Below are positions 1-15,939 of a DNA stretch of 15,939 nucleotides, one piece after another. The notes beneath the pieces are model-generated. The model saw nothing but the letters and a program-made list of their open reading frames with translations. It searched no databases and was not told the DNA's origin. The position numbers and the translations under genes were made by a program. Each line of letters starts with the position of its first letter. The first letter of the stretch is position 1. The DNA is from a virus, in IMG/VR virus record IMGVR_UViG_3300037313_000747, positions 1-15,939 of that record. One strand, written 5' to 3'.

Positions 1-65
1 GCAACGACCCCGACATCGCGCAGATGCTCCTGATCGGTGCCTACCAGAAACCGGCCGTGGGATGA
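1..65 (+). CDS. Head-to-tail adaptor (gp6-like connector), 3-prime end only; duplicate of 15470-15534
   Basis: Same frame and sequence as the end of CDS 15166-15534 (...IGAYQKPAVG stop at 63-65). The stop overlaps the next ATG (ATGA). Confidence 0.7.
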   Translation, partial: NDPDIAQMLLIGAYQKPAVG

Positions 66-448
66 CCACCGTGCAGCTCGACCCGGCCGACCTCGCCGCG
101 CTCCGAACCCTGATCGACGGAGCCGGGGACTTCACCGTCTCCTACGAACCCGCCGACCTCAAGGTGCTGCCCGGCGTCTGGATCAGGGTCGACGCGATCG
201 ACCTGCTGTCCACGCTCGCCGACGGACACACACGGGTTCCGGTGACCCTGCACCTGGTGACCCGCACGAAGCCGATCGAGAAGGCGCTCGGCGACCTGCT
301 GCCGATGCTCGACGCCGTCTGCTCGGTCCTCACCCCGGCCGGCGACGTCACGATCACCGGCGTAGTCCTGCCCGGCTCTCAGACCCCCATGCCCGCGCTG
401 GCCGTGCCGTACGAGCTGCGCACGATCCCCACGGAGGAAGCACCATGA
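62..448 (+). CDS. Head-tail joining / tail terminator-like neck protein (128 aa)
   Basis: ATGA overlap with the adaptor upstream and with the major tail gene downstream. Size and position between adaptor and tail tube fit the call. G/C-rich third codon positions. The function is positional, with no diagnostic motif. Confidence 0.45.
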   Translation: MTTVQLDPADLAALRTLIDGAGDFTVSYEPADLKVLPGVWIRVDAIDLLSTLADGHTRVPVTLHLVTRTKPIEKALGDLLPMLDAVCSVLTPAGDVTITGVVLPGSQTPMPALAVPYELRTIPTEEAP

Positions 449-867
449 CCATCCTGTCCTACAAGCTCGGTCCCGGCACGCTCACGCTCGGCACCGGTCC
501 GCTCGACGCCAGCGCGCAGGTCACCGCGATCCGGGTCGTCCCGGAGGAGTCCGTCGAGACGGCCGAGGCCGTCGACGTCCTGTCCGGCGAGCAGCTCGCC
601 GAGGAGGAGACGGCCTCCTACAAGTACAAGCTGACCGCGACGTTCCTCCAGGACACCCTGGCCGCTGCCGGCCTGGTCGCCTACACCTGGGACAACGCCG
701 GCGCGTCGGTCCCGTTCAAGTTCGCGCCGAACACGCCGCTGGACCGGCAGATCACCGGAACCTTGCGCGTGGTCCCGCTGGAGATTGGCGGCGACGTCAA
801 GAAGCGGAACACGTCCGACTGGTCCGTCTCGATCATCGGGACCCCCGTCCTGGGCGACATTCCGTAA
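445..867 (+). CDS. Major tail (tail tube) protein, 140 aa
   Basis: Real start is ATG 445, in frame with track ORF 37-867, preceded by GGAGGA at 433-438. The upstream 136 residues of the track ORF are Arg/Pro-rich overlap with the previous gene. The sequence pattern (KLGPGTLTLG..., ...ATFLQD..., ...FKFAPN..., ...PLEIGGD...) resembles small actinophage tail tube proteins. It sits upstream of the chaperone and tape measure. Confidence 0.65.
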   Translation: MTILSYKLGPGTLTLGTGPLDASAQVTAIRVVPEESVETAEAVDVLSGEQLAEEETASYKYKLTATFLQDTLAAAGLVAYTWDNAGASVPFKFAPNTPLDRQITGTLRVVPLEIGGDVKKRNTSDWSVSIIGTPVLGDIP

Positions 868-897
868 CCACTGACCCCGACACAACGAGGAGACACG

Positions 898-1104
898 ATG
901 AACGACCAGCAGGGCGGCAATCAGTCGCCGCAGCCGCAGCCCAAGACGGAGACGCCGGCGACGCCGAAGTCCGGCCGTTACGGCGCATTCGACAAGACGC
1001 TGAGCCGGTACGTCGGCGGCGTCCGCGACACGAAGGCCGAGGCCGAGACGATCGCGAAGGGCATCCGCGACGCCGGCCGCAAGGCCGAGGTTCGCGAGGT
1101 CTGA
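898..1104 (+). CDS. Hypothetical 68-aa protein (Gln/Pro-rich N-terminus, basic C-terminal half)
   Basis: GAGGAG at 887-892 lies 5 nt before ATG 898. It fills the gap between the tail tube gene and the gp10-like gene. Codon third positions are G/C-rich. Confidence 0.55.
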   Translation: MNDQQGGNQSPQPQPKTETPATPKSGRYGAFDKTLSRYVGGVRDTKAEAETIAKGIRDAGRKAEVREV

Positions 1105-1110
1105 GCCGCG

Positions 1111-1455
1111 ATGGTGGCGGGCGCAGAGTTGCGGGGTGCGGACCAACTGGTCCGCACCCTCGACGATGCTGCCCGCCACCTTGAGGACCTGACCGACGCC
1201 GAGCGCGAGGCCGGCCAGCTCCTCGCCGACCAGGGCAGCAAGGCCGCACCGCGGCGCACCGGCCGGCTCGCGGAGTCCCACGGCTACACCGTCACCGATA
1301 CCGGCCTGAGCGTCACCGCCGCAACACCGTACGCATCCATCGTCCACGCCCGGAATCCATGGCTGACCCGCACCGTCGGGAACCAGCTCGACCAGGTCGC
1401 GGACATCTACCTGGCCGGCGTCTCCGACGCCCTGGCCGAAGTGAAAGGCATCTAA
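1111..1455 (+). CDS. HK97 gp10-family tail-completion / neck protein (114 aa)
   Basis: The motif block ...AAPRRTGRLAESHGY...GLSVTAATPYASIVHARNPWL... matches the P-x-x-TG-x-L ... PYA-x-x-V signature I associate with the HK97-gp10-like family. The stop abuts the next ATG (TAAATG). Confidence 0.6.
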   Translation: MVAGAELRGADQLVRTLDDAARHLEDLTDAEREAGQLLADQGSKAAPRRTGRLAESHGYTVTDTGLSVTAATPYASIVHARNPWLTRTVGNQLDQVADIYLAGVSDALAEVKGI

Positions 1456-1845
1456 ATGAAGCGCACCGTTCTGACCGCCTACATGCCCTCGGACACCGAC
1501 CCCGCCGGCGAGGTCGAGGAAACCGTGACCGTCCTGCTCGGCGACCAGATGCGCGCCGAGCTGGAGCTTGGCAAGCGCGGGCAGTCCCCGACAACCCACG
1601 GGATCAGCTTCGTTGCCGCCATGGCCTGGGCGGCGCTCGCGCGTGAGGGTCGGACCACGCTGGCGTTCCCGGAGTTCGCCGCCCAGTGCTTCGACGTCGC
1701 GCGGCAGAGCGATGAGGACGCGCCCGACGTGGACCCTACCCGACCGGCAGTGTCGACCGACTCTGTCTCCAGCTCTCCATCCTCATCCCCGGCACCGGTC
1801 CCGACTGGTGGCGAGCCCGCATCGCCGCCGGCGACGACCGTCTGA
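1456..1845 (+). CDS. Tail assembly chaperone (129 aa) with a Ser/Pro-rich tail
   Basis: Immediately upstream of the tape measure. The ...GDQMRAELELGKRG...AAMAWAALAREGRTTLAFPEFAAQCFDV... pattern is typical of actinophage tail assembly chaperones. Confidence 0.6.
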   Translation: MKRTVLTAYMPSDTDPAGEVEETVTVLLGDQMRAELELGKRGQSPTTHGISFVAAMAWAALAREGRTTLAFPEFAAQCFDVARQSDEDAPDVDPTRPAVSTDSVSSSPSSSPAPVPTGGEPASPPATTV

Positions 1846-1886
1846 TCGCGACCGCCCTCGACCTGCACAGTAAGGACTGACCACCA

Positions 1887-2987
1887 ATGTCCACCCGGAC
1901 CGCCGCCCTCGCCGTCGACGTCGTCTCCGACGTGAACGACGCTGTGTCCGGGCTCGGCAACGTCGGCGACGCCTCCCGCGGCGCGAGCACCGACGTCGCG
2001 CGGATGGGTCGCGAGGCCGAGGAGTCCGCCCGCCGGCTGAACATCACCGCCGATTCGGCCGACGAGCTGGGCGGCAAGGCCGGCAAGGCGACCGGCGCGC
2101 TCGGCGCGCTCTCCTCCGGTTTCGAGCTGCTCGGTCCCAAGGGCGCGGCCGCTGCGACCGGCCTCCAGTCGGCGGCGCTCGCCACCGATTTTTTCTCCGG
2201 TGTCGGCGACTCGCTGAACCTGGTCATGGAATCGACCATCGTCAAGACCACGCTGGCGAAAGCCGCGGCCGTCGGGCACGGGATCGCGACCAAGGCGTCC
2301 GCGGCCGCGACTGGGATCATGACCGGCGCACAGTGGGCGCTGAACGCCGCCATGTCGGCGAACCCGATCGTGCTGATTGTGATCGGCCTCGCCGCCCTCG
2401 CCGCCGGCATGGTCCTCGCCTACAAGAAATCCGAGACGGTCCGCACCATCCTGAAGGCCGTAGGGCGCGCCGGACAGGAGTCGGTCGGCTGGATCGTGGA
2501 CAGGGTCCGCGACCTGACCGGCTGGTTCCGCGACAAGCTGCCCGGCGGGCTCCGCGGCGCGCAGACCGCGGCCTCGGTCGCGTTCGCCGTCATGACCGCC
2601 GGACCGCGGACCCTCATCGCCGTTGTCACGCACGCGGACGACGCGGTCAGGAAGCTGCCCGCGGCATTCGAGTCGGCCAAGCGCAAGGCCGGCGCGATCG
2701 CCGGCGCTCTGACCAAGCCGTTCCGGGACCTGTGGAACCTGGTTGACGACATCGTCGACAAAATCGACGACATCGATATCCCGAGCCTGGGCGACCTCAA
2801 CCCGTTCGCCCGGACCGCCGGCTCAACCTCCGGTTTCGTCAGCGGTCGGACCGTCGTCGAGGTTCAGGGCGGACCGACGTACAACTACACGTTCAACCTT
2901 AACGGGCTGCTGACCGACGACGAGGCAGCCGACTTCATCCGCGAGCTGCTCGACCGGCGCGCCCGTCAGCTCGGGCTGGCCGCATGA
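1887..2987 (+). CDS. Tape measure protein, unusually short (366 aa)
   Basis: Ala/Gly-rich helical protein with a central hydrophobic segment (NPIVLIVIGLAALAAGMVLAY). Position is after the chaperone and before the tail-tip genes. ATGA overlap with the next gene. Confidence 0.8.
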   Translation: MSTRTAALAVDVVSDVNDAVSGLGNVGDASRGASTDVARMGREAEESARRLNITADSADELGGKAGKATGALGALSSGFELLGPKGAAAATGLQSAALATDFFSGVGDSLNLVMESTIVKTTLAKAAAVGHGIATKASAAATGIMTGAQWALNAAMSANPIVLIVIGLAALAAGMVLAYKKSETVRTILKAVGRAGQESVGWIVDRVRDLTGWFRDKLPGGLRGAQTAASVAFAVMTAGPRTLIAVVTHADDAVRKLPAAFESAKRKAGAIAGALTKPFRDLWNLVDDIVDKIDDIDIPSLGDLNPFARTAGSTSGFVSGRTVVEVQGGPTYNYTFNLNGLLTDDEAADFIRELLDRRARQLGLAA

Positions 2988-4468
2988 GCCTGCCGGTCAC
3001 CGATCCGTACTACCGCGTCGAGGTCGACGCCGGCCCGTACTCCTGGGTCACCGAGAAGGGCGACCCGGCCGGCTACGGGCTGGCCGACCCGCTGCGGGTC
3101 GGCTGGTCGCTGCCCGGAAACAACCCGTTGTTCCATGCCCAGCCGGACCCGATGACCGCCTCGTTCAGCGTGATCGCCGCGACAGCGGCCGACCTAGCCG
3201 GCCTGCTCCGCGGCGCTGAGGTTGCGATCCGGGTCTATGGCTGGCCGCCGGGCACCGACAACCCGCACGCCGAGCCGACCGACCTCGACCCGGTCGACTA
3301 CCCGCCCATCGTCATTTTCCGTGGCCGGGTCGCCGACGCGACCGCGTCGCCGCACAAGCTCGGCATGATCGCCACCTACTCCTGTGTTGACTACACCGTC
3401 GATCTGGCCGAGGCCACCATCGGCGCCGGCGACTGGCCGCAGGAGGGCAACAACGCCCGGTTCGCGCGCATGTTCAACGAGGCCGGCGTGCTGGCCCCGG
3501 CCGAGCTGTTTCCCGGGAACTATTTCTTCACGTCGTTCCTGCTGAACGCCCGGACCGCGTCCCCGACCGACGCCCGCTCGGCGATCTGGCAGCTAGTCGA
3601 CTGGACCACCGACGACCAGGACATTCCGTTCGGCAACTACTACGCCATGCAGACCAACTACGCCGCCGGCTACCTCGACGGCGATGTCCCGGACCCGCTG
3701 GAGCCCTACGTCGTGCCGGTGCAGACCACGCACCTGCACACCGGCGACGCCGGCGAAGCCCCGCGGCTGCCGGCCGTGCTGGCGATCACCCAACCCGGCA
3801 AGTACGGCGTGGACATTGTCGAGCACGCCGACCGGCGCGCCGCGGTCATCAACGCCGATCACGTCGACTTCAAAGCGGTCTGGTCGCAGAGCAAGCGCAC
3901 CGACCCGGACACCGTCACCGTGACCGGCGTGTTCGACGACGGGACGACCTCGTACACCGCCGCCGAGCCGGACGCGGTCCCGATCGCGGCGTCGTTCGCG
4001 ATCGACGTCCGTGAATCGTCGGTCGCTCAGCCGTTCGCTCGGGCCAACCTGTCCGCGGCCGACTCCGACAACTGGGTTGCGGACAGCTTCACCTGGTATG
4101 CCGATCAGGACCCGTGGCCGATGATCGCCGACGGCCTCTGGTTCATCGAAGGCATGCACGTCCTGGCCTCCCGCTACCCGGTCGTCGTCGAGGGCATCGA
4201 CGCCGCCAAGAATCCCAGCGGCCTCGACTGGTACGCCGGCCGGCTCAAGTCGGCGACCTTCGTGCTCGCCAAAGGCCGCTACACCGTGACGTTCCAGCTC
4301 CTCCGCTCGCTGCTGCGCCCGCAGGTGTTCGACTCCAGCATCCCCGCCGCCGGCGTCGGAACGCTCGCCTGGGACGACCTCGACGCCGCCCCGCTCACCA
4401 CCGTTGCTTGGTCCGCCCTCGACCCGGCCTTTACCTGGTTCGACGCCCGACTCCTGAGGAGCCCCTGA
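2984..4468 (+). CDS. Minor tail protein (494 aa; distal tail/tip component)
   Basis: Directly follows the tape measure with ATGA coupling. It is the largest tail-tip ORF. No enzymatic motif was recognised. Confidence 0.65.
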   Translation: MSLPVTDPYYRVEVDAGPYSWVTEKGDPAGYGLADPLRVGWSLPGNNPLFHAQPDPMTASFSVIAATAADLAGLLRGAEVAIRVYGWPPGTDNPHAEPTDLDPVDYPPIVIFRGRVADATASPHKLGMIATYSCVDYTVDLAEATIGAGDWPQEGNNARFARMFNEAGVLAPAELFPGNYFFTSFLLNARTASPTDARSAIWQLVDWTTDDQDIPFGNYYAMQTNYAAGYLDGDVPDPLEPYVVPVQTTHLHTGDAGEAPRLPAVLAITQPGKYGVDIVEHADRRAAVINADHVDFKAVWSQSKRTDPDTVTVTGVFDDGTTSYTAAEPDAVPIAASFAIDVRESSVAQPFARANLSAADSDNWVADSFTWYADQDPWPMIADGLWFIEGMHVLASRYPVVVEGIDAAKNPSGLDWYAGRLKSATFVLAKGRYTVTFQLLRSLLRPQVFDSSIPAAGVGTLAWDDLDAAPLTTVAWSALDPAFTWFDARLLRSP

Positions 4469-4851
4469 TGCCCAGCACCACGACCAACCGCGCCCTACCG
4501 ATCCCGCTGGACACCGACCCGTTCGCCGACGGCGCGAAGGCAACCCGCGACCTCGCCAACGCCCTTGACACCAACTTCGAGGCGTTCCTCGTCACGCTGG
4601 TAGTCGCCGCCGGGACGACGTTCCAGTCGAAAAACATCGTGTTCCCGGTCGCGTTCCCGGCCGGCACCACACCCGCGGTCGTGTGTCAGGTCGGCTCGAC
4701 CGCCGTCACGGCGGGCTACTTCGCCGACGCTTACAGCGTCACCAACACCGGATGCACGATCCGCGTCGACAAGCTGGTCGGCGCTGCGCCGGGCTCAAAC
4801 GTGACCGTTCAGGTTGGCGTCATGGTCGCCAAGTCTCAGGCCTCGTTGTGA
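4468..4851 (+). CDS. Small minor tail / tail fibre-like protein (127 aa), candidate receptor-binding protein
   Basis: Start is ATG 4468 (TGATG overlap, GAGGAG at 4456-4461), in frame with track ORF 4114-4851. The N-terminal TTNRALPIPLDTDPFADGAKATRDLANALD resembles the conserved N-terminus of actinophage fibre / minor tail proteins. The C-terminal part looks like a small beta-rich domain. Confidence 0.55.
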   Translation: MPSTTTNRALPIPLDTDPFADGAKATRDLANALDTNFEAFLVTLVVAAGTTFQSKNIVFPVAFPAGTTPAVVCQVGSTAVTAGYFADAYSVTNTGCTIRVDKLVGAAPGSNVTVQVGVMVAKSQASL

Positions 4852-4854
4852 GCT

Positions 4855-5166
4855 ATGGAGGCTCTCGGGTGGGCGGCAGCCGCGGCCGCGGGCATCGCCG
4901 GATTCATCTACCTCGCGCGCGTCGTGCTCTACATCGCCCGATCGATCGAGGCCGTCCGGCACCTGGTCCAGCGCGAGCTGGAGCACAACCACGGGTCATC
5001 GATGAAGGACGACGTTCACGGCATGGCGGTCGCGATCGGCCAGCTACAGCGCGACCGCGACGACGACCGCCGGCGGCTCAGTCGAGCCCTACGGCTGGCA
5101 GCCAAGCACCACCCGGAGGACGCCTGGCTCTACCTCGACAGCCCCGACGAAAGGAAACCTAGATGA
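4855..5166 (+). CDS. Membrane protein with one N-terminal TM helix (103 aa), possibly DUF2746-like; lysis-cassette associated
   Basis: N-terminal hydrophobic segment WAAAAAAGIAGFIYLARVVLYIA, then an ELEHNHGSSMKDDV motif reminiscent of an actinophage membrane-protein family. ATGA overlap with the amidase gene. Confidence 0.55.
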   Translation: MEALGWAAAAAAGIAGFIYLARVVLYIARSIEAVRHLVQRELEHNHGSSMKDDVHGMAVAIGQLQRDRDDDRRRLSRALRLAAKHHPEDAWLYLDSPDERKPR

Positions 5167-5825
5167 CCGCCACGTTCCCGCCGCCCAGTCCGGTGCGGAT
5201 CCTCACCGACAAGCACGGCGGTCCGCAGACCCCGACGCTGGTGGTCATGCACGCCACCGTCAGCCCGACCCGCGCCGGCATGGCGCGCGCGATCGCGCGC
5301 ATGTTCCGCGACTCCGACCGGGACAGCTCGGCGCATTACGTCGTCGACGAGGCCGAGGTTATCCAGTGCGTCGGCGATCACCGGATCGCCTGGCACTGCG
5401 GTTACAACGCCGACTCGCTCGCGATCGAGATGTGCTTTATGCCGCTGCTCGACTCGCTGCGAAACTGGCTGCTCCCCGCCGACCAGCGCACCGGCGACAA
5501 GGTCGGCACGCACGCCCGGATCATCCCGCTTCGCTGGCTCCAGCCGGCTCCGCGGCGCATGTTCCGGCGCTCGGTGAACTTGGCCGGCGACCTGTGTCTG
5601 TCCTACGGCATTCGGCCGCGCTACATCGGCGTCCGGAAGGTGCGCGCCTGGGACGCTGCCGGCCGGCCGGCGGCGCTGGGCGGGATCACGACGCATGCGG
5701 TCATGACGAAGGCGTTCCGCCGATCGACGCACTGGGACCCCGGCGCGTGGCCTCGACGCCTGTTCATCCGCCGTGTCCGCCGGCACGTCGAGGCCCGTCG
5801 GGCTGCTGTCGAGGCCGCGGCATGA
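5163..5825 (+). CDS. Endolysin, N-acetylmuramoyl-L-alanine amidase (Amidase_2/PGRP-type), 220 aa
   Basis: Motifs VVMHAT..., SAHYVVDE..., IAWHCGYNADSLAIEM and ...GITTHAVMT...STHWDPG fit the zinc amidase_2 pattern. It is flanked by membrane-protein genes. Confidence 0.8.
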   Translation: MTATFPPPSPVRILTDKHGGPQTPTLVVMHATVSPTRAGMARAIARMFRDSDRDSSAHYVVDEAEVIQCVGDHRIAWHCGYNADSLAIEMCFMPLLDSLRNWLLPADQRTGDKVGTHARIIPLRWLQPAPRRMFRRSVNLAGDLCLSYGIRPRYIGVRKVRAWDAAGRPAALGGITTHAVMTKAFRRSTHWDPGAWPRRLFIRRVRRHVEARRAAVEAAA

Positions 5826-6043
5826 GGGCCCGCACGAAGCGCTACCTGCGCCGCCTCGCCGTCCGCGGCGTCAAGACGTTCGCTCAGACCCTCGCCGGCG
5901 TGCTCACCGCGGCCGGCACCGGCCTGATCGATACCGACTGGACCGGCGCGCTGTCCGCGTCCGGCATGGCCGGCCTGATCGCCGTGCTGATGAACGTCGG
6001 CGACAGCGGTCCCGACGGGTCCGGACAGGACCAGGGCGGCTGA
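5822..6043 (+). CDS. Holin, r1t-like (73 aa)
   Basis: Start is ATG 5822 (ATGA overlap with the endolysin stop), in frame with track ORF 5366-6043. RGVKTFAQTLAGVLTAAG...DW...ALSASGMAGLIAVLMNV matches the r1t-type holin pattern common in actinophages. Confidence 0.7.
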   Translation: MRARTKRYLRRLAVRGVKTFAQTLAGVLTAAGTGLIDTDWTGALSASGMAGLIAVLMNVGDSGPDGSGQDQGG

Positions 6044-6222
6044 CACTCCGGGACCATGTAGAACGGCTGCCGGTGAGGCTGGTCCTCATCGGCAGCCGCT
6101 TGCTTGTCCAGCGCCGGGTATGCGAGCACGACCAGGACCGCGCCGAGCTTGCAGAACGACCACGCCCAATCGAGCAGGAAGTCCCGCCGCGACCGCGCCG
6201 CCGGCACCGGCCCGAGCCTCAT
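5884..6222 (-). CDS. Questionable ORF translationally coupled to the int stop (112 aa; basic N-terminus plus one TM helix)
   Basis: ATG at 6222 overlaps the int stop (ATGA). The first ~40 codons (6099-6222) have nearly all G/C third positions in a stretch no other gene covers, and encode RSRRDFLLDWAWSFCKLGAVLVVLAYPAL. However, the ORF runs through the terminator hairpin and 160 nt antisense into the holin gene. Confidence 0.25.
   Translation of the reverse strand: MRLGPVPAARSRRDFLLDWAWSFCKLGAVLVVLAYPALDKQAAADEDQPHRQPFYMVPECQPPWSCPDPSGPLSPTFISTAIRPAMPDADSAPVQSVSIRPVPAAVSTPARV
6064..6098. terminator. Strong hairpin between the convergent lysis and integrase transcription units (candidate bidirectional intrinsic terminator)
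   Basis: 6064-6078 pairs with 6084-6098 (15 bp, one G-U on the plus-strand RNA, 5-nt loop CTGGT), followed by CTTGCTTGT on the plus strand. It lies 21 nt after the holin stop. Confidence 0.6.
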
Positions 6223-7127
6223 GCGACGAGGGTCGCCGCGCGCGCGGCCGAACGGATCGCATCGTCGGGCATCGCCACGTACCGCTGTGTCGTCTCCGGT
6301 CTGGAGTGGCCGAGCAGCGCGCCGACGGCGAGCAGATCGCGGGTCGCGGCATAGGCCACCGAGGCGCACCGATGCCGCAATGTGTGCGCCGTCCAGCCGT
6401 CCGGCAACGCGCGGGACAGCAGCCGCGAGACGTGGCCCGGTGTCAGGTGCGACCCGTGGCCGTTCGGGAACGCCCAGCCGTCGAGGAGCTGGAGCCGCGC
6501 GAGGAGCCGGCCGTCGACGACCGGCACCGCGCGCACCTTGCCGCCCTTGCCGTGCACGACCAGCTCGTCGCCGACCAGGTCGCGCGCGTGCACGCGGGCA
6601 ATCTCGGCGGCGCGGAGCCCGCCGAACGCGGCAAGCATGCCCATCAGCCCGATTCGCGGGTCCGGGTCCGCGAGGAGCTGGCGCACGACGTGCTCGGGTG
6701 CCGGTCGCGGCCGGCCGGCCGGCACCCGCACCGAGTCCAGCCGCGCCGATGGGTCGTCATCGATATGCCCGGCTCCGTGCGCCCAGCGGTAGAAGCTACG
6801 CACCGCCGAGCGCGCTGACTTGCGTGTCTCCGGTGCCCAGTGCTCGGCGGCGAGGAAGGCTTGCAGGTCAGCGGTCTGCACCGCGCACGGGTCCGGATGC
6901 AGGTCGCGCAGCCGGGCCAGATAGTGGCGGTGTAGCCGGATAGTGCCGGGCGAGCGTCCCGCCGCCCTCATCGCCTGGTCATAGAGCACCAGCATTGCCG
7001 CCCAAGCGAACGGCGCTGCGGCGAGTCCCGAGCTGATCGCTGCACGCATGGGCGCAGGGTACGCGCCAGTCTCGTATTTCGCACGAAAAGTCCGAATATC
7101 GACGACCGGCCGACCGCGGCTGCTCAC
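6219..7127 (-). CDS. int: Tyrosine integrase / XerC-D-like site-specific recombinase (302 aa from GTG 7127; alternative ATG at 7049)
   Basis: C-terminal catalytic block ...HTLRHRCASVAYAATRDLLAVGALLGHSRPETTQRYV (H-x-x-R ... H ... Y) and an upstream ...GGLRAAEIARV... Arg box. The GTGA overlap with the repressor stop argues for the 7127 start. The protein ends ...AARAATLVA. Confidence 0.9.
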   Translation of the reverse strand: MSSRGRPVVDIRTFRAKYETGAYPAPMRAAISSGLAAAPFAWAAMLVLYDQAMRAAGRSPGTIRLHRHYLARLRDLHPDPCAVQTADLQAFLAAEHWAPETRKSARSAVRSFYRWAHGAGHIDDDPSARLDSVRVPAGRPRPAPEHVVRQLLADPDPRIGLMGMLAAFGGLRAAEIARVHARDLVGDELVVHGKGGKVRAVPVVDGRLLARLQLLDGWAFPNGHGSHLTPGHVSRLLSRALPDGWTAHTLRHRCASVAYAATRDLLAVGALLGHSRPETTQRYVAMPDDAIRSAARAATLVA

Positions 7128-7459
7128 GCCGCCGGCCTGACCAGCGCGAACGGATAACCGGAGGGTTGTTGGTTCGAGTCCAACCGGGGGAGCGGAGCAC
7201 CGTCAGGTGCCGGACCATCGTCCGGCACCTGACCCGTCTCTAGCCACTCCAGCGGGACTCCTGTCCGCAGTGCCCACAGTCGCAGGGTTGACTTCCTCGG
7301 ATTGATCCGTCCCGACAACCACGTCGAGACGGCCTCCCGACGGACCCCGAGATATTCCGCCATGTCGCCGGCGCTCACACCGCTGATTCGCAGCGCGCGC
7401 CGCATCCGGTCGGGCATGTCGAACTCCAGCCGCGACCAGTCCATCGCTTGGTGACTCAT
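7124..7459 (-). CDS. XRE/Cro-CI-type helix-turn-helix repressor (111 aa), virion-form with C-terminal extension
   Basis: HTH segment VSAGDMAEYLGVRREAVSTWLSG. It is divergent from the early operon and sits directly upstream of, and overlapping, int. Residues 90-102 (LPRLDSNQQPSGY) are the antisense reading of the tRNA-like segment. The protein ends ...FALVRPAA. Confidence 0.8.
   Translation of the reverse strand: MSHQAMDWSRLEFDMPDRMRRALRISGVSAGDMAEYLGVRREAVSTWLSGRINPRKSTLRLWALRTGVPLEWLETGQVPDDGPAPDGAPLPRLDSNQQPSGYPFALVRPAA
7155..7192 (+). other. tRNA 3-prime-half mimic: putative attP common core
   Basis: Perfect T-arm GTTGG-TTCGAGT-CCAAC (7168-7184), then a 7-nt acceptor strand CGGGGGA and G (7185-7192). 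It is preceded by a 5-nt variable-loop-like and a 5-nt anticodon-stem-like segment. No matching 5-prime half (D-arm, 5-prime acceptor, paired anticodon stem) exists upstream, so it is a fragment and not a gene. Confidence 0.65.
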
Positions 7460-7469
7460 AGCCCGAGGG

Positions 7470-7484
7470 TCGCAAGAATCGCGA
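7470..7484. promoter_or_regulatory. Operator-like site O1: TCGCAAGAATCGCGA
   Basis: TCGC-N7-GCGA inverted repeat with an A-rich spacer, 11 nt upstream of the repressor ATG in the divergent intergenic region. It is one of three near-identical 15-mers. Confidence 0.55.
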
Positions 7485-7488
7485 AAAA

Positions 7489-7498
7489 AATCTAGCGT
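7489..7498. promoter_or_regulatory. Back-to-back candidate -10 hexamers: TAGCGT (plus, 7493-7498) and TAGATT (minus, 7494-7489)
   Basis: Both fit the actinobacterial TANNNT form and share a central CTAG. The plus-strand hexamer ends 6 nt before GTG 7505, so a leaderless start is possible. No experimental support. Confidence 0.3.
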
Positions 7499-7504
7499 TT
7501 CGGC

Positions 7505-7867
7505 GTGTCGCTACTTGCGCGTCTCGCAAAAATAGCGATCCTCGCCATTATGACGAACACAAACCCGCCTGAAACGGCCCTCCACCATGCCTACACCTGG
7601 CTAGACGTTTCCGCCTCCTACGGCCGCGAGCGCGCCCAGCTCCTCGCCGTCGACGGCAAGCCGAGCCGCAACGCGCAGATCGCCGAAGCGAACAACCAGC
7701 AGGCGCACGCGCTCAAGCTCGCCGAGATTCATGCGACCCTCGCCGTCGCCGAGGGGATCGGCAAGCTGGTTCAGCTCGCGGAGACGTGGGCGACCACTCC
7801 ATCCCGCGCGACGCTGCCGAGCTACGGCGGAGGCATCCTCCCGCCGCCGGCGGATGGGCGCTACTGA
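7505..7867 (+). CDS. First rightward early protein, hypothetical, helical (120 aa from GTG 7505; 105 aa if ATG 7550)
   Basis: Divergent from the repressor. Neither start has a clear SD. GTG 7505 sits at leaderless distance from a TANNNT hexamer. No HTH motif recognised, so it is not an obvious Cro. Confidence 0.55.
   Translation: MSLLARLAKIAILAIMTNTNPPETALHHAYTWLDVSASYGRERAQLLAVDGKPSRNAQIAEANNQQAHALKLAEIHATLAVAEGIGKLVQLAETWATTPSRATLPSYGGGILPPPADGRY
7524..7538. promoter_or_regulatory. Operator-like site O2: TCGCAAAAATAGCGA
   Basis: Same TCGC-N7-GCGA architecture and orientation as O1, 54 bp away, just inside or upstream of the first rightward ORF. A degenerate related element TCGCTACTTGCGC lies at 7508-7520. 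Confidence 0.55.
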
Positions 7868-8100
7868 TGCCCGCCGAGGTCCGCCCGCCGGTCGACGTCG
7901 GCAGGGTCGCGCTGTGCTCGTCGAATCCGGCTTTGTTCGACTCCCTCGACTACGGCGACCACATGAGCGCCCGCGAGTGGTGCGAAGTGTGTTTCTCGCG
8001 GTCGAGCTGCCGGCTGTACGCGCTCGGCAACCCGGACGCGACCGGCACCTATGGCGGCGACCTGTTCCGCGCCGGCGTGACCGTCATGGCGGTGCGCTGA
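7867..8100 (+). CDS. WhiB-like Fe-S transcription factor (77 aa)
   Basis: Start is ATG 7867 (TGATG overlap), in frame with track ORF 7786-8100. Cys pattern is C-x21-C-x2-C-x5-C (ALC...WCEVCFSRSSC), followed by a GTYGG turn equivalent to the G[VI]WGG motif. Confidence 0.75.
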   Translation: MPAEVRPPVDVGRVALCSSNPALFDSLDYGDHMSAREWCEVCFSRSSCRLYALGNPDATGTYGGDLFRAGVTVMAVR

Positions 8101-8192
8101 TGCGCGCTATCGAGCTGCTCTGTGCCCTTGCCCTGGTCGCCTGGTTCGGCGGCTTTGGCGTCGTCCTCCTACTGATTGCGACTAAGCCATGA
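8100..8192 (+). CDS. 30-codon hydrophobic micro-ORF (MRAIELLCALALVAWFGGFGVVLLLIATKP)
   Basis: ATG 8100 overlaps the WhiB stop (TGATG), and its stop overlaps the next ATG (ATGA). It forms a single predicted TM helix. In frame with the tail of track ORF 7731-8192. Confidence 0.45.
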   Translation: MRAIELLCALALVAWFGGFGVVLLLIATKP

Positions 8193-8917
8193 CCGAAACG
8201 CTGCGCGGTGGAACGTGGAACATGGAGCGCGATCGCGACCCCGAGGTCGCTGCGCGCGAGGCGTTCCGGATCATCGACGATCACAACCTCGACTTCCTCT
8301 GCATTCAGGAGTGCTCGCACTACCTCAAGGCGTTGCGCATGGAGTCGCGCGCCGGTCGCGACGACGGCGGGACGCATGACCTGATCGCGTTCAACTTCGA
8401 GCCCGGCCGCGCCGAGTCGGCGATCCTCGTCCGCCGCACGCTGACCCACGGCAAGGGTTACCAGGTGCGCGCCACTCGCGCCGGCTGGATCACCGTCCGG
8501 GGCGGCACGACACCGCCGAAGTACCTGACGACGGTCCTCCTCGACGGCTGGTTGCGGGTCGTGTGCCTACACACCGCGCCCTCGGTCCGCTGGCGGCAAG
8601 GTCGCATCGTCGGACCGATCCGGCGCGTTGTCTCGATGCGCCAGCTCACACGCGCGGTTGTCCGACTCGCTCGACGTCGTCCCGAACACCCGTTGTTCAT
8701 CGCCGGCGACTGGAACGCCACACCGGACACGCGCGGCCGCTGGTCCCCGCACTGGGTAGGCCGCATGATCGGCGGCAGGGTCATCGCCCCGAAGCTCGGC
8801 ACGCACGGCCGGCGAACGATCGACTTCGCCGTAATCCGCGGCTGTGGCGCGAAGGCAACTCGCGCTGAGTCGTACGGCTCCGATCACCGGGCGGTCGTGT
8901 TCAAGGTGACCCGGTGA
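8189..8917 (+). CDS. Endonuclease/exonuclease/phosphatase (EEP, DNase I-like fold) family protein (242 aa)
   Basis: Ordered EEP motifs are all present: GTWNMER, DFLCIQE, IAGDWNATPD, TIDFAV, GSDHRAV. Confidence 0.75.
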   Translation: MTETLRGGTWNMERDRDPEVAAREAFRIIDDHNLDFLCIQECSHYLKALRMESRAGRDDGGTHDLIAFNFEPGRAESAILVRRTLTHGKGYQVRATRAGWITVRGGTTPPKYLTTVLLDGWLRVVCLHTAPSVRWRQGRIVGPIRRVVSMRQLTRAVVRLARRRPEHPLFIAGDWNATPDTRGRWSPHWVGRMIGGRVIAPKLGTHGRRTIDFAVIRGCGAKATRAESYGSDHRAVVFKVTR

Positions 8918-9180
8918 GCCGGCGGCGTCACAGCACCGCATCCGCCTCGGTGCGCCAGCTCACCGCGCAGGCCGAATCCTTCCCGCTCGCCGAGCCGTGC
9001 TCGACGTGCGGGAAACGCCGCTACCGAACCCGCAAGGCCGCGAAGCTGGCCCTGCGCAAGCTCAACACGTCGGACTCAATGAGCGTCTATCGGTGCGGGG
9101 AGTTCTGGCACTTTGGACACACGCCCTGGCAGGTACGCCGCGGCGTCACCGCCCGGCATGACTGGCAGGCTCCAGAGTGA
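8914..9180 (+). CDS. Small basic Zn-ribbon-like protein (88 aa)
   Basis: GTG 8914 (GTGA overlap). CSTCGKRRYRTRKAAKLAL...VYRCGEFWHFGH gives a C-x2-C ... C ... H-x2-H arrangement. Function unknown. Confidence 0.55.
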   Translation: MSRRRHSTASASVRQLTAQAESFPLAEPCSTCGKRRYRTRKAAKLALRKLNTSDSMSVYRCGEFWHFGHTPWQVRRGVTARHDWQAPE

Positions 9181-9482
9181 TCGGCGAGGACCCCGCCGTC
9201 ACGTCCTGGCGGATCGCACTCGCACCGCGCCCGCAGTATCGCGTAGGCCGGCACTGGTGGCGCGAGCTGGTCACCAGCACCTACCGCGATGCGCGCGACG
9301 CCTGGGAAGCGCGCCGCGAATCCAACGCGCCGGCGTGGGGAGCTGCCGGCGCTGCGCACAGCGGCGCGGCCTGTCACCAGCTCAGCGATACCGAGTACGC
9401 CGAGCTGTACCCGCCGCCGTTGCTGCGCGACTTCCTCGTCCACCTATCGACCGGTGCGCTCGCGCCCGAGAGGATCACATGA
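9177..9482 (+). CDS. Hypothetical protein (101 aa)
   Basis: GTG 9177 (GTGA overlap) and an ATGA overlap at its end. Read codon by codon, third positions are almost all G/C, unlike the competing upstream part of track ORF 9113-10063. Confidence 0.5.
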   Translation: MIGEDPAVTSWRIALAPRPQYRVGRHWWRELVTSTYRDARDAWEARRESNAPAWGAAGAAHSGAACHQLSDTEYAELYPPPLLRDFLVHLSTGALAPERIT

Positions 9483-10063
9483 GCGTCGAGGCTATGGCTG
9501 TCGTGCTTCACCACAGCCGGGCCAGCGGGACTACGAAGCTGGTCCTGCTGGGCATCGCCAACCATGCCGGCGACGGCGGCGCATGGCCGACCGTCGGGAC
9601 CCTGGCGAAGTACGCGAACGTCTCCGAGCGCGCGGTGCAACAGGCGATCGGCAAGCTGGTCAAGCTCGGGGAGCTGTCCGTCGCGCGGCAGGCCGGCGGG
9701 CTCGGCTACCTCAAGCACTACGAACGACCCAACCGTTACGACGTGTTGGTGACCTGCCCGGCGACCTGCGATCGCAGCATGAACCATCGGCAACGCGCCT
9801 ATCCACAGGCTCGACAGCTCACGCTGATCCCGTCCGATTCCGCCACGTCTGACCCGGTGAAGCAGGGTTCACCCGGTGAAGCAGAGTTCACCCGGTCCGG
9901 TGAAGCTGGCTTCACCCAAACCAGTCCTACTAACCCACCTGTAGATCACTCTCCTAGGACTGTCACCAGACCGCGCGCGCGAGCCGCGCGGCCTGAGCAC
10001 CGAGCCGCAATGCTGGAGCAGATACACGCCGCGCTCGACGAGGCGAAGGCGAAGCAGTCATGA
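9479..10063 (+). CDS. Winged-helix/HTH DNA-binding protein of the replication-organiser type (HTH_36-like), 194 aa
   Basis: Start is ATG 9479 (GAGAGGA at 9468-9474), in frame with track ORF 9113-10063. MAVVLHHSRASGTTKLVLLGIANHAGDGGAWPTVGTLAKYANVSERAVQQAIGKLVKLGEL is a widespread phage/plasmid HTH domain. The C-terminal half contains the palindrome array. Confidence 0.7.
   Translation: MSVEAMAVVLHHSRASGTTKLVLLGIANHAGDGGAWPTVGTLAKYANVSERAVQQAIGKLVKLGELSVARQAGGLGYLKHYERPNRYDVLVTCPATCDRSMNHRQRAYPQARQLTLIPSDSATSDPVKQGSPGEAEFTRSGEAGFTQTSPTNPPVDHSPRTVTRPRARAARPEHRAAMLEQIHAALDEAKAKQS
9856..9916. repeat. Three tandem 18-bp palindromes GGTGAAGC-N4-TTCACC (iteron-like)
   Basis: Copies are 9856-9873 GGTGAAGCAGGGTTCACC, 9875-9892 GGTGAAGCAGAGTTCACC and 9899-9916 GGTGAAGCTGGCTTCACC. 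Each has a GGTGAA/TTCACC inverted repeat. Spacing is 19 and 24 bp. Confidence 0.85.
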
Positions 10064-10476
10064 GCGCGTGGGCAGGCCGCAAGGTGCGGCGACTGGTGAC
10101 GATCACCCTCCAGCTCAAGGGCACGACGTGCCACCTGTGCGGGCTGCCCGGCGCGGACAGTGCAGACCACGACCCGCCGCGGTCCGTCCTCGTCGCCTCC
10201 GGTGTGGTCGACCCCGACGCCCTGGTCTATCTGTTCCCGGCCCATCGCTACCCGTGCAACATCAAGCGCAAGGCGCGGACGATCACCGACCAGCTCCGCG
10301 CCGAGCTGCGCGCGGCTCGACTGCGCTACGAAGGCAAGGCCGACGCGATCGCGGACACTCTGTCGCCGCGCTTCGCTCGGCGTCGCGATTTTTTGAGAGC
10401 CGGCAGGACCACGGAAGGTAACGCTTCCCTCTCCCTCCCCGGTTCTCCCACAAAAACCGGAGGCGAGCGACGATGA
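10060..10476 (+). CDS. HNH endonuclease (138 aa)
   Basis: CHLCG...ADHDPP...AHRYPCNIKRK gives C-x2-C, DH and H-x3-CN elements. It lies immediately upstream of terS, the usual partner position in cos-type phages. Confidence 0.8.
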   Translation: MSAWAGRKVRRLVTITLQLKGTTCHLCGLPGADSADHDPPRSVLVASGVVDPDALVYLFPAHRYPCNIKRKARTITDQLRAELRAARLRYEGKADAIADTLSPRFARRRDFLRAGRTTEGNASLSLPGSPTKTGGERR

Positions 10477-10850
10477 CCGCGACCGAACCCGACCCGCTGC
10501 CGCTGCCCGGTCTGGAGGACGGCGTCGACAGCCGCCGAGCCGTGACCGATCTGGAGTCGGCCGTGCGGCGCACGATCGCCGCGCACCAGGAGCTGGATCA
10601 CCTGACCGAAGTCGACGCCGGCAAGTGCGCGATTGCGATCGAGCTGTGTCAGGTCGCCGCCCGCAAGCGCGCCGGCGGGCGCATGTCCACGATCAGCAAC
10701 GACCTGCGGCTACTCCAGGAGATTCTGGATTCGCTCACCCCGGACGCCGACACCGACGTCGACGCGAAGCTCCGCGCGGCCATGGCGGAGTGGTCCGAGG
10801 AGGTGTCGAATGCAGCCGATGCCAGCGCCGAAGTTCGCGACACCCCGTGA
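10473..10850 (+). CDS. terS: Terminase small subunit (125 aa)
   Basis: Position directly upstream of, and overlapping, terL. Acidic helical protein. GGAGG at 10459-10463. The call is mainly positional. Confidence 0.55.
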   Translation: MTATEPDPLPLPGLEDGVDSRRAVTDLESAVRRTIAAHQELDHLTEVDAGKCAIAIELCQVAARKRAGGRMSTISNDLRLLQEILDSLTPDADTDVDAKLRAAMAEWSEEVSNAADASAEVRDTP

Positions 10851-12219
10851 CCTGTCGCGGCCGACGCTCGGCGAGCGGCAAGGGAAGTTCGCGCGGGTCT
10901 GGCTCGGGCAGCCGTTCATGCCCTGGCAGCAGCTTGTGGCCGACGTCGCCGGCGAGCTGCGCCCCGACGGCCTGCCGGTGTACCCGTTGGTCGTGGTCAC
11001 CGTGCAGCGACAGGCCGGCAAGTCGCACCTGGCGATGGCGCAGACCGGAGAGCGGTCGTTCAGCCGGGCCAAGTTCCGGTCTTGGTACACCGCGCAGACC
11101 GGCGGCGACGCGCGCGACCAGTTCCTGAAGTTCGACGAGGAGGTCGTGCAGGGCACGGCGCTGGAGGCGGTCGTCCGAACCCTGCGCGGCAACGGCCACG
11201 AGGTCATGAAGTGGCCGAACGGCTCGCAGCTCCGACCGCACCCGCCGACGGAGACGGCGCTGCACGGCAAGCAGTCCGACCGCAACGACATAGACGAGGG
11301 TTGGGCATTCTCCGAGGACGAGGGCAAGCTGCTGTTGCAGGCGATCAGCCCGACGCAGCTAACCCGCCGCGGCGCGCAGACGTTCATCTGGTCGGCCGGC
11401 GGCACCGCGGCCTCGACCTGGCTCGCCGCGCTGGTGGCTCGCGGCCGCGCCGGTGATCCGAGCATGGCCTATTTCGAGTGGGGCATCCCGGACGAGGCCG
11501 ATCCCGAGGACCTCGACGTGATCGCCGCGCACCATCCCGCATTCGGCCACCTGGTCACCATGGAGTCGCTCAAGGCGATGCGGGCACAGTTCGGCGATGA
11601 CGTCGCCGGCTGGGCGCGCGCCGCGGGTAACCGCTGGACCGAAGTCCTGGGCGGCGCGATCCGGCTCGGCGAGTGGGAGGCCGTCCGGTACGCCGACGCG
11701 ATCCCGGACGGCGCGCCGGTCGGCTACGGTGCGGCGCGGTCCGCGGACGGCTCTCAGGTCGTGGTCGCGGCCGCGGCCGAGGTCGACGGCCGGATCGTGG
11801 CCGAGGTCCTCGACGTGCTGCCGGTGTTCGGCGCGGCCTCGTCGGTCCGCGACTGGATCGCCGGCGGTGCGCTCGCCGTCGACCCGTCCGGCCCGTCGGC
11901 GTCGCTGGCCGACGAGCTGGAGCGGCTCGGTGCGCGCATGGTGCCGATGCGCTCGCGCGACGCCGCGGCCGCGACCTCGAATCTGCTCGACGGCATCGCC
12001 GCACGGGCGTACCTGTTCCGGCAACACGTCGCCCTCGACGCCGCGGTGAAGGTCGCCGGCACCCGCGCAATCGGCGACGGCGGCAAGACGCTGGCCCGTG
12101 TCGCGGCCGGCGCGCCGATCGCCGCGCTGGAGGCGTGCCGAGAGGCAGCCTGGGCCGTCACGCACCGCCCGCGCGAGCTTGGCAAGCCCGTTGTTCGGTT
12201 CGGACAGGAGGTCGCCTGA
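10810..12219 (+). CDS. terL: Terminase large subunit (469 aa)
   Basis: Start is ATG 10810 (GAGGAGG at 10796-10802), in frame with track ORF 10633-12219, giving a 41-nt overlap with terS. Walker A-like VQRQAGKS, Walker B-like DRNDIDEGW, and a C-terminal nuclease-sized domain. Confidence 0.85.
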   Translation: MQPMPAPKFATPRDLSRPTLGERQGKFARVWLGQPFMPWQQLVADVAGELRPDGLPVYPLVVVTVQRQAGKSHLAMAQTGERSFSRAKFRSWYTAQTGGDARDQFLKFDEEVVQGTALEAVVRTLRGNGHEVMKWPNGSQLRPHPPTETALHGKQSDRNDIDEGWAFSEDEGKLLLQAISPTQLTRRGAQTFIWSAGGTAASTWLAALVARGRAGDPSMAYFEWGIPDEADPEDLDVIAAHHPAFGHLVTMESLKAMRAQFGDDVAGWARAAGNRWTEVLGGAIRLGEWEAVRYADAIPDGAPVGYGAARSADGSQVVVAAAAEVDGRIVAEVLDVLPVFGAASSVRDWIAGGALAVDPSGPSASLADELERLGARMVPMRSRDAAAATSNLLDGIAARAYLFRQHVALDAAVKVAGTRAIGDGGKTLARVAAGAPIAALEACREAAWAVTHRPRELGKPVVRFGQEVA

Positions 12220-12410
12220 TGTTCCGGTTTGACCGCACACAACGCTCCGTCGTTGTCATCTGCACCCGGTGCGGCGCGCGGGACGTGTTCACCGATCCCG
12301 CGCCCGCGGAGACGTGGGCAGCGCTGCACCTGCGCGACGCGCACCCCGCGCCGACACCGGAGCGCAAGGCCGCGCTGACCGCCGGCAGGGTCCGCGACCA
12401 CCGTCGCTAA
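12219..12410 (+). CDS. Small hypothetical protein (63 aa) between terminase and portal
   Basis: ATG 12219 overlaps the terL stop (TGATG), with GGAGG at 12207-12211. Contains CTRCG. In frame with the tail of track ORF 11673-12410. Confidence 0.45.
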   Translation: MFRFDRTQRSVVVICTRCGARDVFTDPAPAETWAALHLRDAHPAPTPERKAALTAGRVRDHRR

Positions 12411-12418
12411 AATCGCGA
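12404..12418. promoter_or_regulatory. Distal copy of the operator-like motif, O3: TCGCTAAAATCGCGA
   Basis: Same 15-bp TCGC-N7-GCGA architecture, A-rich spacer and orientation as O1 and O2. It spans the stop codon of the 63-aa ORF at the start of the only sizeable gap (58 nt) inside the structural operon, upstream of portal. Confidence 0.5.
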
Positions 12419-12468
12419 CACGCGCAAAATGTGCTTTGGGTTGTAACGCTGGGGCGAAGGCTTGAGGA

Positions 12469-13521
12469 GTGGGTCTATTCACCGCTCTCCGGATGCGCCG
12501 GCAGCTCGCCGAGGTACAGGCATCGTTCCCGCCGCTCGATCCGTCCTCCTACCCGATCGCGACCCCCTGGGGCAGCTCGGACCTGAGCCGCTGGGTCTGG
12601 TCGGACATCCTCGGTGCCGACGTGCCGAGCAACAGCCGCGCCGCCGCGATGCGGCTGCCGGCGCTGGCGCGCGGCCGGAACCTGATCGTGTCGTCCATCG
12701 CCGGCCAGCCGATGCGGCTGCTCACCGGCGAGACGGTCGAGGCCGAGCAGCCCTCATGGTTGACGCAGACCGGCGACGGCTCCAGCCCGCAGATCCGCAA
12801 CGGCTGGACCGTCGACGACCTGATCTTCTACGGCTGGTCGTGCTGGTCGCGGCACTTCGACGGCGACGAGTGGGTCGCCGCGTCGCGGATCAACTATGGC
12901 GACTGGGTCATCAACGCCGACATGCAAGTCGAGGTCAACGGCGTGCCGGTCGACCCGGAGTCCGTCGTCGTGATCCCCGGTCTGCATGAGGGCATCCTCA
13001 CGTTCGGCGCGGAGACGATCGACGACGTCCGCACCCTGTACCGCAACGTCCGCGCCCGGCTGCTGAACCCGGTTCCGGGAATCGACCTGCACCAGACCGG
13101 CGGCGACCAGCTCACCGACCCCGAGATTGACGCACTGATCGCCCGGTGGGCGGCAGCCCGGCAGGGCACCAACGCCGGCGTCTCCTACACCAACGAAGTG
13201 ATCGAGGCCAAGCCGCTGACCGGCGGCGACGAACAACTCATGATCGAGGCGCGCAACGCAGCCGCGGTCGACCTGGCCCGACTCATCGGCGTGCACGCCG
13301 GCATCGTCGACGCGACCGCCCCGAAGGCGTCGCTGAACTACGAGACCACGACCGGGCGCAACCAAGAGTTCGTGGACTTCGACCTGGCGCTCTACATGAC
13401 GCCGATCACCGCGCGCCTGTCCCTCGACGACTGCACCGAGCCCGGCCAGCGCGTCGACTTCGACCTGTCCAACCTGACCGCGCCGGCACCCTCGCCGACC
13501 GGCCCGAATCTGGAGGACTGA
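12469..13521 (+). CDS. Portal protein (350 aa)
   Basis: Position after terL and before the protease-capsid gene. Size and composition fit small HK97-type portals. GTG start with GAAGG at 12456-12460. The start codon is uncertain (ATG 12493 is an alternative). Confidence 0.75.
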   Translation: MGLFTALRMRRQLAEVQASFPPLDPSSYPIATPWGSSDLSRWVWSDILGADVPSNSRAAAMRLPALARGRNLIVSSIAGQPMRLLTGETVEAEQPSWLTQTGDGSSPQIRNGWTVDDLIFYGWSCWSRHFDGDEWVAASRINYGDWVINADMQVEVNGVPVDPESVVVIPGLHEGILTFGAETIDDVRTLYRNVRARLLNPVPGIDLHQTGGDQLTDPEIDALIARWAAARQGTNAGVSYTNEVIEAKPLTGGDEQLMIEARNAAAVDLARLIGVHAGIVDATAPKASLNYETTTGRNQEFVDFDLALYMTPITARLSLDDCTEPGQRVDFDLSNLTAPAPSPTGPNLED

Positions 13522-13525
13522 CCCG

Positions 13526-15917: not shown

Positions 15918-15939
15918 CCATCCTGTCCTACAAGCTCGG
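15914..15939 (+). CDS. Major tail protein, 5-prime end only (duplicate of 445-470)
   Basis: Identical to the start of CDS 445-867; truncated by the window end. Confidence 0.6.

Follow-up and report, generated by a model that had tools for sequence, protein, structure and literature searches.

The question raised by the locus analysed here is whether integration of a very small temperate phage into its host chromosome also decides which form of its repressor is made. The locus lies in IMG/VR virus record IMGVR_UViG_3300037313_000747 (positions 1 to 15,939; the whole stretch of 15,939 nucleotides is referred to as the window) and comprises a repressor gene (rep, 7124..7459, minus strand), a tyrosine integrase gene (int, 6219..7127, minus strand) and, within the 3' part of rep, a putative phage attachment site (attP). 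An earlier note on this DNA had proposed that the arrangement matches integration-dependent immunity, a mechanism reportedly described by Broussard et al. in 2013 (Mol Cell 49:237) in the mycobacteriophages BPs (Cluster G), Brujita (Cluster I) and Charlie (Cluster N). The defining features of the system are a three-gene int-rep-cro module, attP inside rep and a stable truncated Rep in the prophage, together with tags on Rep and Int and the lack of xis (PMC3694055, PMC4557955). Judged from the sequence, the features that can be recognised at this level are all present in the window, both types of junction appear in relatives, and the proposal is upheld to that extent. The two open reading frames (ORFs) are as the note had described them, co-oriented with rep upstream of int and overlapping by GTGA. 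We consider it very probable that the locus is a switch of the BPs/Brujita/Charlie type and works as such; the placement of attP in rep is more certain than this overall reading, and the degradation step less certain.

The evidence begins with the common core of attP, 39 nt at 7155..7193 (plus strand), which equals the 3' part of tRNA-Asn(GTT) and lies antisense within rep codons 89-102. In the tRNA the core begins at anticodon base 36, covers the T arm and the 3' strand of the acceptor stem and extends to the discriminator plus one base; in rep it occupies the third base of codon 89 to the second base of codon 102. The earlier note had seen a tRNA-like sequence at 7155-7192, inside codons ~90-102; its position within rep is confirmed, and the segment proves to be part of a host tRNA gene and one base longer. 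A genome scan with the 33-nt centre of the core as query, using one genome per species, returned at least 120 tiles, nearly all from Nocardioides, Marmoricola and other Nocardioidaceae. In 110 of the 120 tiles listed, the matching sequence forms the 3' part of a complete tRNA-Asn(GTT), and identity to the tRNA-Asn of Nocardioidaceae tiles is complete (39/39) in at least 79. An exact match of 39 nt is far beyond chance, and when the whole window was compared with the same 120 tiles by blastn, 7155-7193 was the sole segment to match. ARAGORN detected no tRNA gene in the window, and Rfam gave chance-level matches only on 6900-7600, the partial tRNA being missed by the tRNA model. As the core matches the tRNA-Asn of this family, and the GC content also fits, the host is most likely a member of Nocardioidaceae (Nocardioides-type soil bacteria). 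No papers on Nocardioides/Nocardioidaceae phages were found in the literature searched.

The consequence of recombination at this core can be read from a single base. Just past the core, in tRNA sense, the phage has A and the tRNA has T, and in the in-silico attL the first host base turns rep codon 102 from TAT (Tyr) into TAA. The predicted prophage Rep has 101 residues and ends ...LPRLDSNQQPSG (...QQPSG); the tail YPFALVRPAA (codons 102-111, 7127..7156, minus strand) is lost and nothing is gained. In rep sense, the predicted attL reads ...GACTCGAACCAACAACCCTCCGGTTAACAGCCGAATGCTCTGCCAG..., and the predicted attR consists of host DNA 3' of tRNA-Asn followed by GCTCCCCCGGTTGGACTCGAACCAACAACCCTCCGGTTATCCGTTCGCGCTGGTCAGGCCGGCGGCGTGA. 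The earlier note had expected the last ~9 residues to be replaced by host-encoded sequence: a loss of the C-terminus is indeed predicted, of ten residues, and the TAA codon leaves no room for an addition. Its further expectation, that int would be separated from the repressor promoter, agrees with the junctions predicted here and with integrated relatives, which have int at the opposite end.

These relatives illustrate both sides of the integration event. On the attL side, in three loci (L001, L005 from Cellulomonas sp. A375-1, and L007), a short Rep of 100-102 residues, 50-61% identical to the window Rep, stops at a TAA in the anticodon loop of a complete tRNA-Asn, with phage genes on one side, host genes (TetR, ABC transporter, def, fab) on the other and no adjacent int. 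The attR side is seen in L128, a 123-kb metagenome contig, where host tyrS, tRNA-Met and 45 nt are followed by a partial tRNA-Asn, its 3' half without the 5' half, and beyond this by a Rep tail lacking the helix-turn-helix (HTH) body (ending ...GAVA before the stop), then by a small ORF and lastly by an Int that shares 64% identity with that of the window. The two sides come together in the provirus IMGVR_UViG_2713897049_000002 (43 kb), whose two ends carry the core as a direct repeat of 43 nt; at one end the Rep body stops after ...QQPSD, and at the other the core leads into ...QQPSDCRFSVVRPARLALAS and a stop (tail ...LALAS), followed by int. The prophage IMGVR_UViG_3300020137_000012 (~15.3 kb) also shows both sides: tRNA-Asn with a short Rep marks one end, and a degenerate core copy accompanied by Int (57% identical) the other. 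Its attR-side core (L283 51-88) differs from the attL copy by 3 mismatches, including an in-frame stop, and ~900 nt of small ORFs lie between this core and int; it may be a decaying prophage or represent a variant layout.

The same division is seen on a larger scale. In an IMG/VR survey of 64 loci, rep is followed by int in 21, an order shared with the near-identical contig L006 and with the relative L151, and all 21 have long Reps, ending in AA in 16 cases and in VA, AS, SA (two) or AL in the rest. Long Reps with AA, VA or AS ends lie immediately upstream of int on contigs of phage size. In ~30 loci the Rep is short and either lies at the edge of a provirus or overlaps a tRNA, and in none of them is int nearby; the overlapped tRNA is Asn or Arg where the gene is present, and other T-arm motifs are found where the contig stops at the rep stop. 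Exact end-to-end direct repeats were not found in four reconstructed proviruses, three of which are trimmed before attR and one of which has a degenerate attR (fuzzy matching). The integrated form that the earlier note had suggested looking for was recovered in relatives, which show the earlier Rep stop and the loss of the tail at the att junction, and not for this phage itself. Neither tblastn nor a hidden Markov model of the Rep family revealed a close-relative lysogen among the 120 genome tiles listed, and capsid protein and alignment searches of viral and metagenome contigs for a two-ended prophage gave only short or phage-sized contigs. A 19.4-kb contig (P0086) considered as a whole prophage was rejected, being an unintegrated, larger relative.

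The repressor belongs to a well-defined family. The 111-residue virion form carries HTH_3 (E 1e-7) and Phage_CI_repr domains, PHROG 2328 ('transcriptional repressor') matches residues 4-102 (E 3.7e-25), and by tblastn 80-87% of the query aligns with the immunity repressors of Phayonce, Purky, GMA5 and SallySpecial at 36-44% identity. Exact-protein look-ups with the 111-residue Rep and the 302-residue Int gave no match because gene callers chose later starts; the metagenome gene call places the rep start at the second ATG (7444), yielding 106 residues, and this call (P0001) led to L006. When the 79 detectable Rep homologs are aligned, the parts they share are the HTH domain, a linker that varies and LPRLDSNQQPSGY, the peptide obtained by translating the tRNA-Asn T arm in antisense. 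Downstream of this peptide the homologs fall into two forms. Short Reps terminate 1-2 codons past the motif (...PSD, ...PFD, ...PSG, ...PAG), and two homologs (P0035, ending ...QQPSG, and P0065, ending ...QQPAG) match the predicted prophage form of the window Rep. Long Reps carry tails of 10-44 unrelated residues ending in AA in 31/53 and in AA, VA or AS in 48/53. The window Rep, with its C-terminus ...VRPAA, would have such an ssrA-like end (...PAA) in its unintegrated form only. When residues were shuffled within tails 10,000 times, the mean counts were 1.3 for AA and 3.0 for AA/VA/AS and the observed counts were reached in 0/10,000, a result which is not a strict probability because the Rep homologs are related.

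The integrase displays a similar C-terminal bias. Int, 302 residues from GTG, consists of SAM-like core-binding and Phage_integrase catalytic domains (Pfam) without an N-terminal arm-binding domain; its ORF is intact, and the motifs ...HTLRH... and ...LLGH... are conserved through the family alignment. It has more than 1,250 homologs (E ≤ 1e-20), many of them on 15-17 kb contigs. The protein ends ...AARAATLVA, the last five codons (ATLVA, 6222..6236, minus strand) being a candidate degradation tag by comparison with BPs Int (PMC3694055). Among the best 120 of the homologs, the last residue is A in 68, S in 26, C in 10 and G in 9 (A/S/C/G in 113/120), mostly preceded by A or V, and the C-terminal consensus is ...RAAxRAAxxVA. 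Integrases of integration-dependent immunity systems are likewise C-terminally tagged, which these termini fit (PMC3694055). The endings ...RPAA in Rep and ...ATLVA in Int to which the earlier note had drawn attention are present, and small or hydrophobic C-termini are seen throughout the Int family.

These termini bear directly on the rival explanation that survives best, in which the phage is temperate in the ordinary way and the overlap of its attP with the 3' end of rep is fortuitous, the 10-residue trim having no regulatory effect, both Rep forms being equally stable and active and the lysis-lysogeny decision being made otherwise. The tail is indeed only 10 residues long, it ends RPAA and not LAA, and the gene at the cro position is unrecognisable. 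The AA/VA/AS ends are nevertheless maintained in 48/53 long forms despite freely varying tail length and sequence, the within-tail shuffles never reach them, and the Int termini are similar across 120 homologs. Furthermore, homologous repressors occur in Cluster P, which is stated to use integration-dependent immunity (PMC4557955), and repressors of Gordonia phages are reported to be ssrA-like tagged (PMC5559632). Tag-dependent degradation itself has been demonstrated for BPs, a Cluster G phage, and is linked to the window Rep by analogy. A trim devoid of regulatory effect is, in our judgement, unlikely.

Less probable still is that the tRNA-like stretch is a relic, its dual-coded LPRLDSNQQPSG motif being kept for protein function while the phage integrates elsewhere or no longer integrates. 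The peptide motif is common to most of the Rep family, and no lysogen of this phage was found among the genome tiles listed, as a relic would have it. Against this stands not only the 39/39 nucleotide identity to the Nocardioidaceae tRNA but also the pattern of change among relatives. In comparison with L151 (16,995 bp), which has Int 91% and Rep 52% identical in amino acids to those of the window, the core forms an island of ~43 nt at 100% identity inside a diverged rep. The T stem reads GTTGG/CCAAC in the window core, as in Nocardioides, and GCTGG/CCAGC in Cellulomonas prophages, as in their own tRNA-Asn. The changes are compensatory in the tRNA and synonymous in Rep, both versions encoding LDSNQQP, and because the differences match each host's tRNA-Asn it is the nucleotide sequence of the core, and not the peptide alone, that follows the host tRNA. 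In addition, no other window segment matches the host tiles listed, the integrase ORF with its catalytic domain is intact, and family members exist with other tRNA-antisense motifs (Arg and others). The tRNA segment is exchangeable and therefore not needed for Rep function.

Different cores occur across the Rep family. At the same position, the peptides GFEPRT, GLEPPTF, RDSNPQPSD, GLEPTT and others, all tRNA-antisense, are carried by P0024, P0026 and P0079 and by the IMG/VR loci L149, L153, L158, L175, L188-L191, L201 and L207, and two members with alternative motifs overlap tRNA-Arg(ACG). The attP core looks like an exchangeable cassette in a conserved repressor scaffold, and, as far as these comparisons reach, the repressor-attP-integrase cassette is common in actinobacterial metagenomes and proviruses, with tRNA cores swapped at the same position of rep.

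Other elements also make use of the tRNA-Asn gene. In one of the genome tiles matched by the core (L123, 2717-2790 and flanking ORF), the ORF of an XRE-type repressor that shows no detectable relation to the window Rep continues across the same tRNA-Asn to a stop after ...LPRLDSNQQPSG, which suggests that another repressor family independently uses the same attB and reading frame. On CAVTEY010000010.1, a full tRNA-Asn is adjoined by the ORF of a 374-residue integrase not detectably similar to that of the window (L033, 3139-4416), and a partial tRNA-Asn copy lies elsewhere (L077, 4649-4681); these were considered as the lysogen of a close relative and rejected, since the 374-residue integrase marks a different element. 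It seems that several elements share this tRNA-Asn gene as a hot spot of integration. The Arthrobacter phages Berka (L144, 15,178 bp) and BlueFeather (L146, 16,302 bp) retain a domain homologous to the HTH of Rep (49-61% identity over ~75 residues) and have no annotated integrase in the stretch examined, and may be derived by loss of int and attP.

An assembly artefact, a prophage end having been fused with other DNA at the rep-int junction or in the circular contig as a whole, is conceivable for a metagenome assembly with a 470-nt terminal repeat but hardly credible, since the independent contig L006, from another sample, is 99.7% identical over 3,195 nt across the holin, int, rep and early genes, L151 has the same gene order and the gene set takes in portal, capsid-protease fusion, lysis and replication genes as well as the tentatively assigned terminase and tail genes.

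On the reading favoured here, a switch thrown by integration, the remaining components lie between and around rep and int. The divergent control region (7460..7549, 90 bp) has 53% GC as against 70% for the genome and contains two 15-nt palindromes of the form TCGC-N7-GCGA, at 7470-7484 (TCGCAAGAATCGCGA) and 7524-7538 (TCGCAAAAATAGCGA), which are candidate operators and are both also found in L006. A third, AT-rich palindrome, TCGCTAAAATCGCGA (12404-12418), lies upstream of the portal gene, in a gap of 250 nt between the terminase-position ORF (ending at 12219) and portal (starting at 12469), and by analogy with BPs gp33 (PMC4557955) it could be a dispersed repressor site. The first rightward gene, in the cro position (7550..7867, plus strand), is an ORF of 105 residues that is also a gene call in L006; at this position relatives have an HTH_17 protein of 57-68 residues. 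No member of an excisionase/HTH_17 family was recognised among the early-region ORFs scanned. With the cro-position gene the switch module extends over ~1.65 kb (6219-7867), bounded on the left by a strong hairpin terminator (6064..6098, plus strand; 15-bp stem with 11 GC pairs) between the convergent lysis cassette (plus strand) and int (minus strand).

Upon infection, rep and int would be transcribed leftward from the 90-bp control region, probably as one unit. Full-length Rep (...VRPAA) and Int (...TLVA), with their ssrA-like C-terminal tails, would by analogy with BPs be substrates of a ClpXP-type protease, and it is proposed that full-length Rep fails to accumulate for this reason. Recombination by Int would take place between the 39-bp core (7155-7193) and its identical counterpart in the 3' part of the host tRNA-Asn(GTT) gene, rebuilding the host tRNA from phage sequence and joining the rep body to the antisense of the tRNA anticodon loop, so as to yield the tail-less Rep of 101 residues. 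The 10-codon tail and int would in turn be relocated to the other end of the prophage, ~15 kb from the rep promoter, and the stable short Rep would then repress rightward lytic transcription, probably via the TCGC-N7-GCGA palindromes. We infer, in this scheme, proteolysis, the identity of the operators, co-transcription, excision by Int alone and the integration of this phage.

Several observations weigh against such a switch. The tail removed has 10 residues, compared to 33 in BPs, and ends RPAA instead of the canonical LAA, and no transfer-messenger RNA is present in the sequence examined, so that the ssrA tag of the host could not be read. The control region is short (~90 bp vs ~200 bp in BPs-type systems), a simple scan for the sigma-70 consensus found no promoter in it, the promoter positions being our inference, and the palindrome pattern is not enriched genome-wide (4 found vs 2.1 expected). 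The 105-residue protein in the cro position has no HTH, Pfam or PHROG match. Neither a lysogen of this phage nor that of a relative above ~64% Int identity was found, and the 120 genome tiles listed contain none. Finally, the start of int is ambiguous, GTG 7127 or ATG 7049, and in L006 the gene is called from ATG 7049, giving 276 residues. The longer ORF, starting at the rep stop, is supported by L151, where an ATG lies two bases past the rep stop and the in-frame N-terminal extension of Int is conserved (MTRRPAPVADLGTYRAKYDTREYSAPMRAA vs VSSRGRPVVDIRTFRAKYETGAYPAPMRAA).

The genome in which the module resides is, on assembly and gene content, a complete, circularly assembled, siphovirus-like genome. 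Window positions 1-470 are an exact copy of 15470-15939, which gives a genome unit of 15,469 bp (70% GC), and due to this 470-nt terminal repeat the genes at 62-448 and 15531-15917 are one and the same. The tailed-phage gene set includes portal, a capsid-protease fusion, a lysis cassette with an r1t-type holin, a replication initiator and a WhiB-like protein, while the large ORF in the terminase position and the tail genes are assigned tentatively, by size and position and not by family search. The 546-residue ORF at 13526-15166 aligns end to end with relatives L130-L135, its equivalent in L275 (557 residues) has a Peptidase_S78 domain, and it looks like a fusion of a capsid maturation protease with the major capsid protein. 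Homologs of rep and int are absent from the capsid relatives L131 and L132 (15.3 kb). Among the products of the early rightward operon are a WhiB-like regulator (7867-8100; C-X23-C-X2-C-X5-C) and a 242-residue protein of the endonuclease/exonuclease/phosphatase family (8189-8917), to which a weak match is also present in the 19.4-kb relative L275.

What the window adds is an inferred host clade, tRNA-Asn as attB and a 10-residue tail whose removal depends on a stop codon from one host base, as well as evidence for a large uncultured family of tiny temperate actinophages with the same cassette and exchangeable tRNA cores. The switch is here seen near its smallest size, with a removable tail of ten residues and a single host nucleotide that supplies the stop codon. 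More tentatively, and with rather more doubt than confidence, we suggest that, of the complete tailed-phage genomes seen to date, this may be the smallest to contain the full integration-dependent switch, and that it represents a very large uncultured family of 15-17 kb temperate actinophages, Nocardioidaceae phages included, in which a switch with exchangeable tRNA cores is the standard route to lysogeny. For Nocardioides-type bacteria, the 1.65-kb module and the tRNA-Asn attB together could provide an integrating vector as well as a compact bistable switch.

Compared to BPs, Brujita and Charlie, the window has the same basic plan: int and rep are leftward and one gene is rightward, attP lies in the 3' end of rep and corresponds to a tRNA attB, the prophage form of Rep (predicted here) is shorter than that of the virion, ssrA-like Ala-rich tails are found on both Rep and Int, and the integrase is small, lacks an arm-binding domain and is accompanied by no recognised xis. 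Unlike in these phages, the stop codon arises from a single host base in the anticodon loop of tRNA-Asn and no HTH is detectable in the cro-position protein; the genome measures 15.5 kb instead of 41-50 kb, and the inferred host belongs to Nocardioidaceae. A second comparison is with the Cluster P mycobacteriophages, e.g. Phayonce, for which integration-dependent immunity with attP in rep has been reported (PMC4472890, PMC9635641). Their repressor is homologous to the window Rep (36-40% identity over residues 12-102) and is likewise followed by a tyrosine integrase, whereas the predicted attB of Phayonce is tRNA-Thr and Cluster P genomes are 47-50 kb, as against tRNA-Asn and 15.5 kb in the window.

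The small Gordonia phages (Cluster CW, and Emperor, EricDab and SallySpecial of Emperorvirus) are tiny temperate siphoviruses like the window phage. Cluster CW phages (Jeanie, McGonagall, GMA5, GRU3; 17.1-17.7 kb) are reported to carry the same immunity system, with a 37-bp attP in rep and tRNA-Lys as attB, and ssrA-like tags have been reported on the repressors of Gordonia phages using it (PMC5559632). Relative to the small Gordonia phages, Int shows 66-70% nucleotide identity over ~300 nt and Rep 36-44% amino acid identity, while the structural genes are not close to theirs and the genome is 0.4-2.2 kb smaller. SallySpecial (15,896 bp) has the same rep-int layout and a tRNA-antisense motif in Rep; both its Rep (...IRDSNPEPADLESVTALALVRAMSAA) and its Int (...AAAAWAA) terminate in AA, and nothing published on its type of immunity was found. 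The claim of the earlier note that this would be one of the most compact switches of its type holds in so far as 15,469 bp is less than the genome of SallySpecial; the margin is slight, and with Cluster CW phages of 17.1-17.7 kb already published the window is only marginally smaller than known phages of this layout. The mechanism is one known from mycobacterial and Gordonia phages, and the window is a clear further example of it and not a new mechanism.

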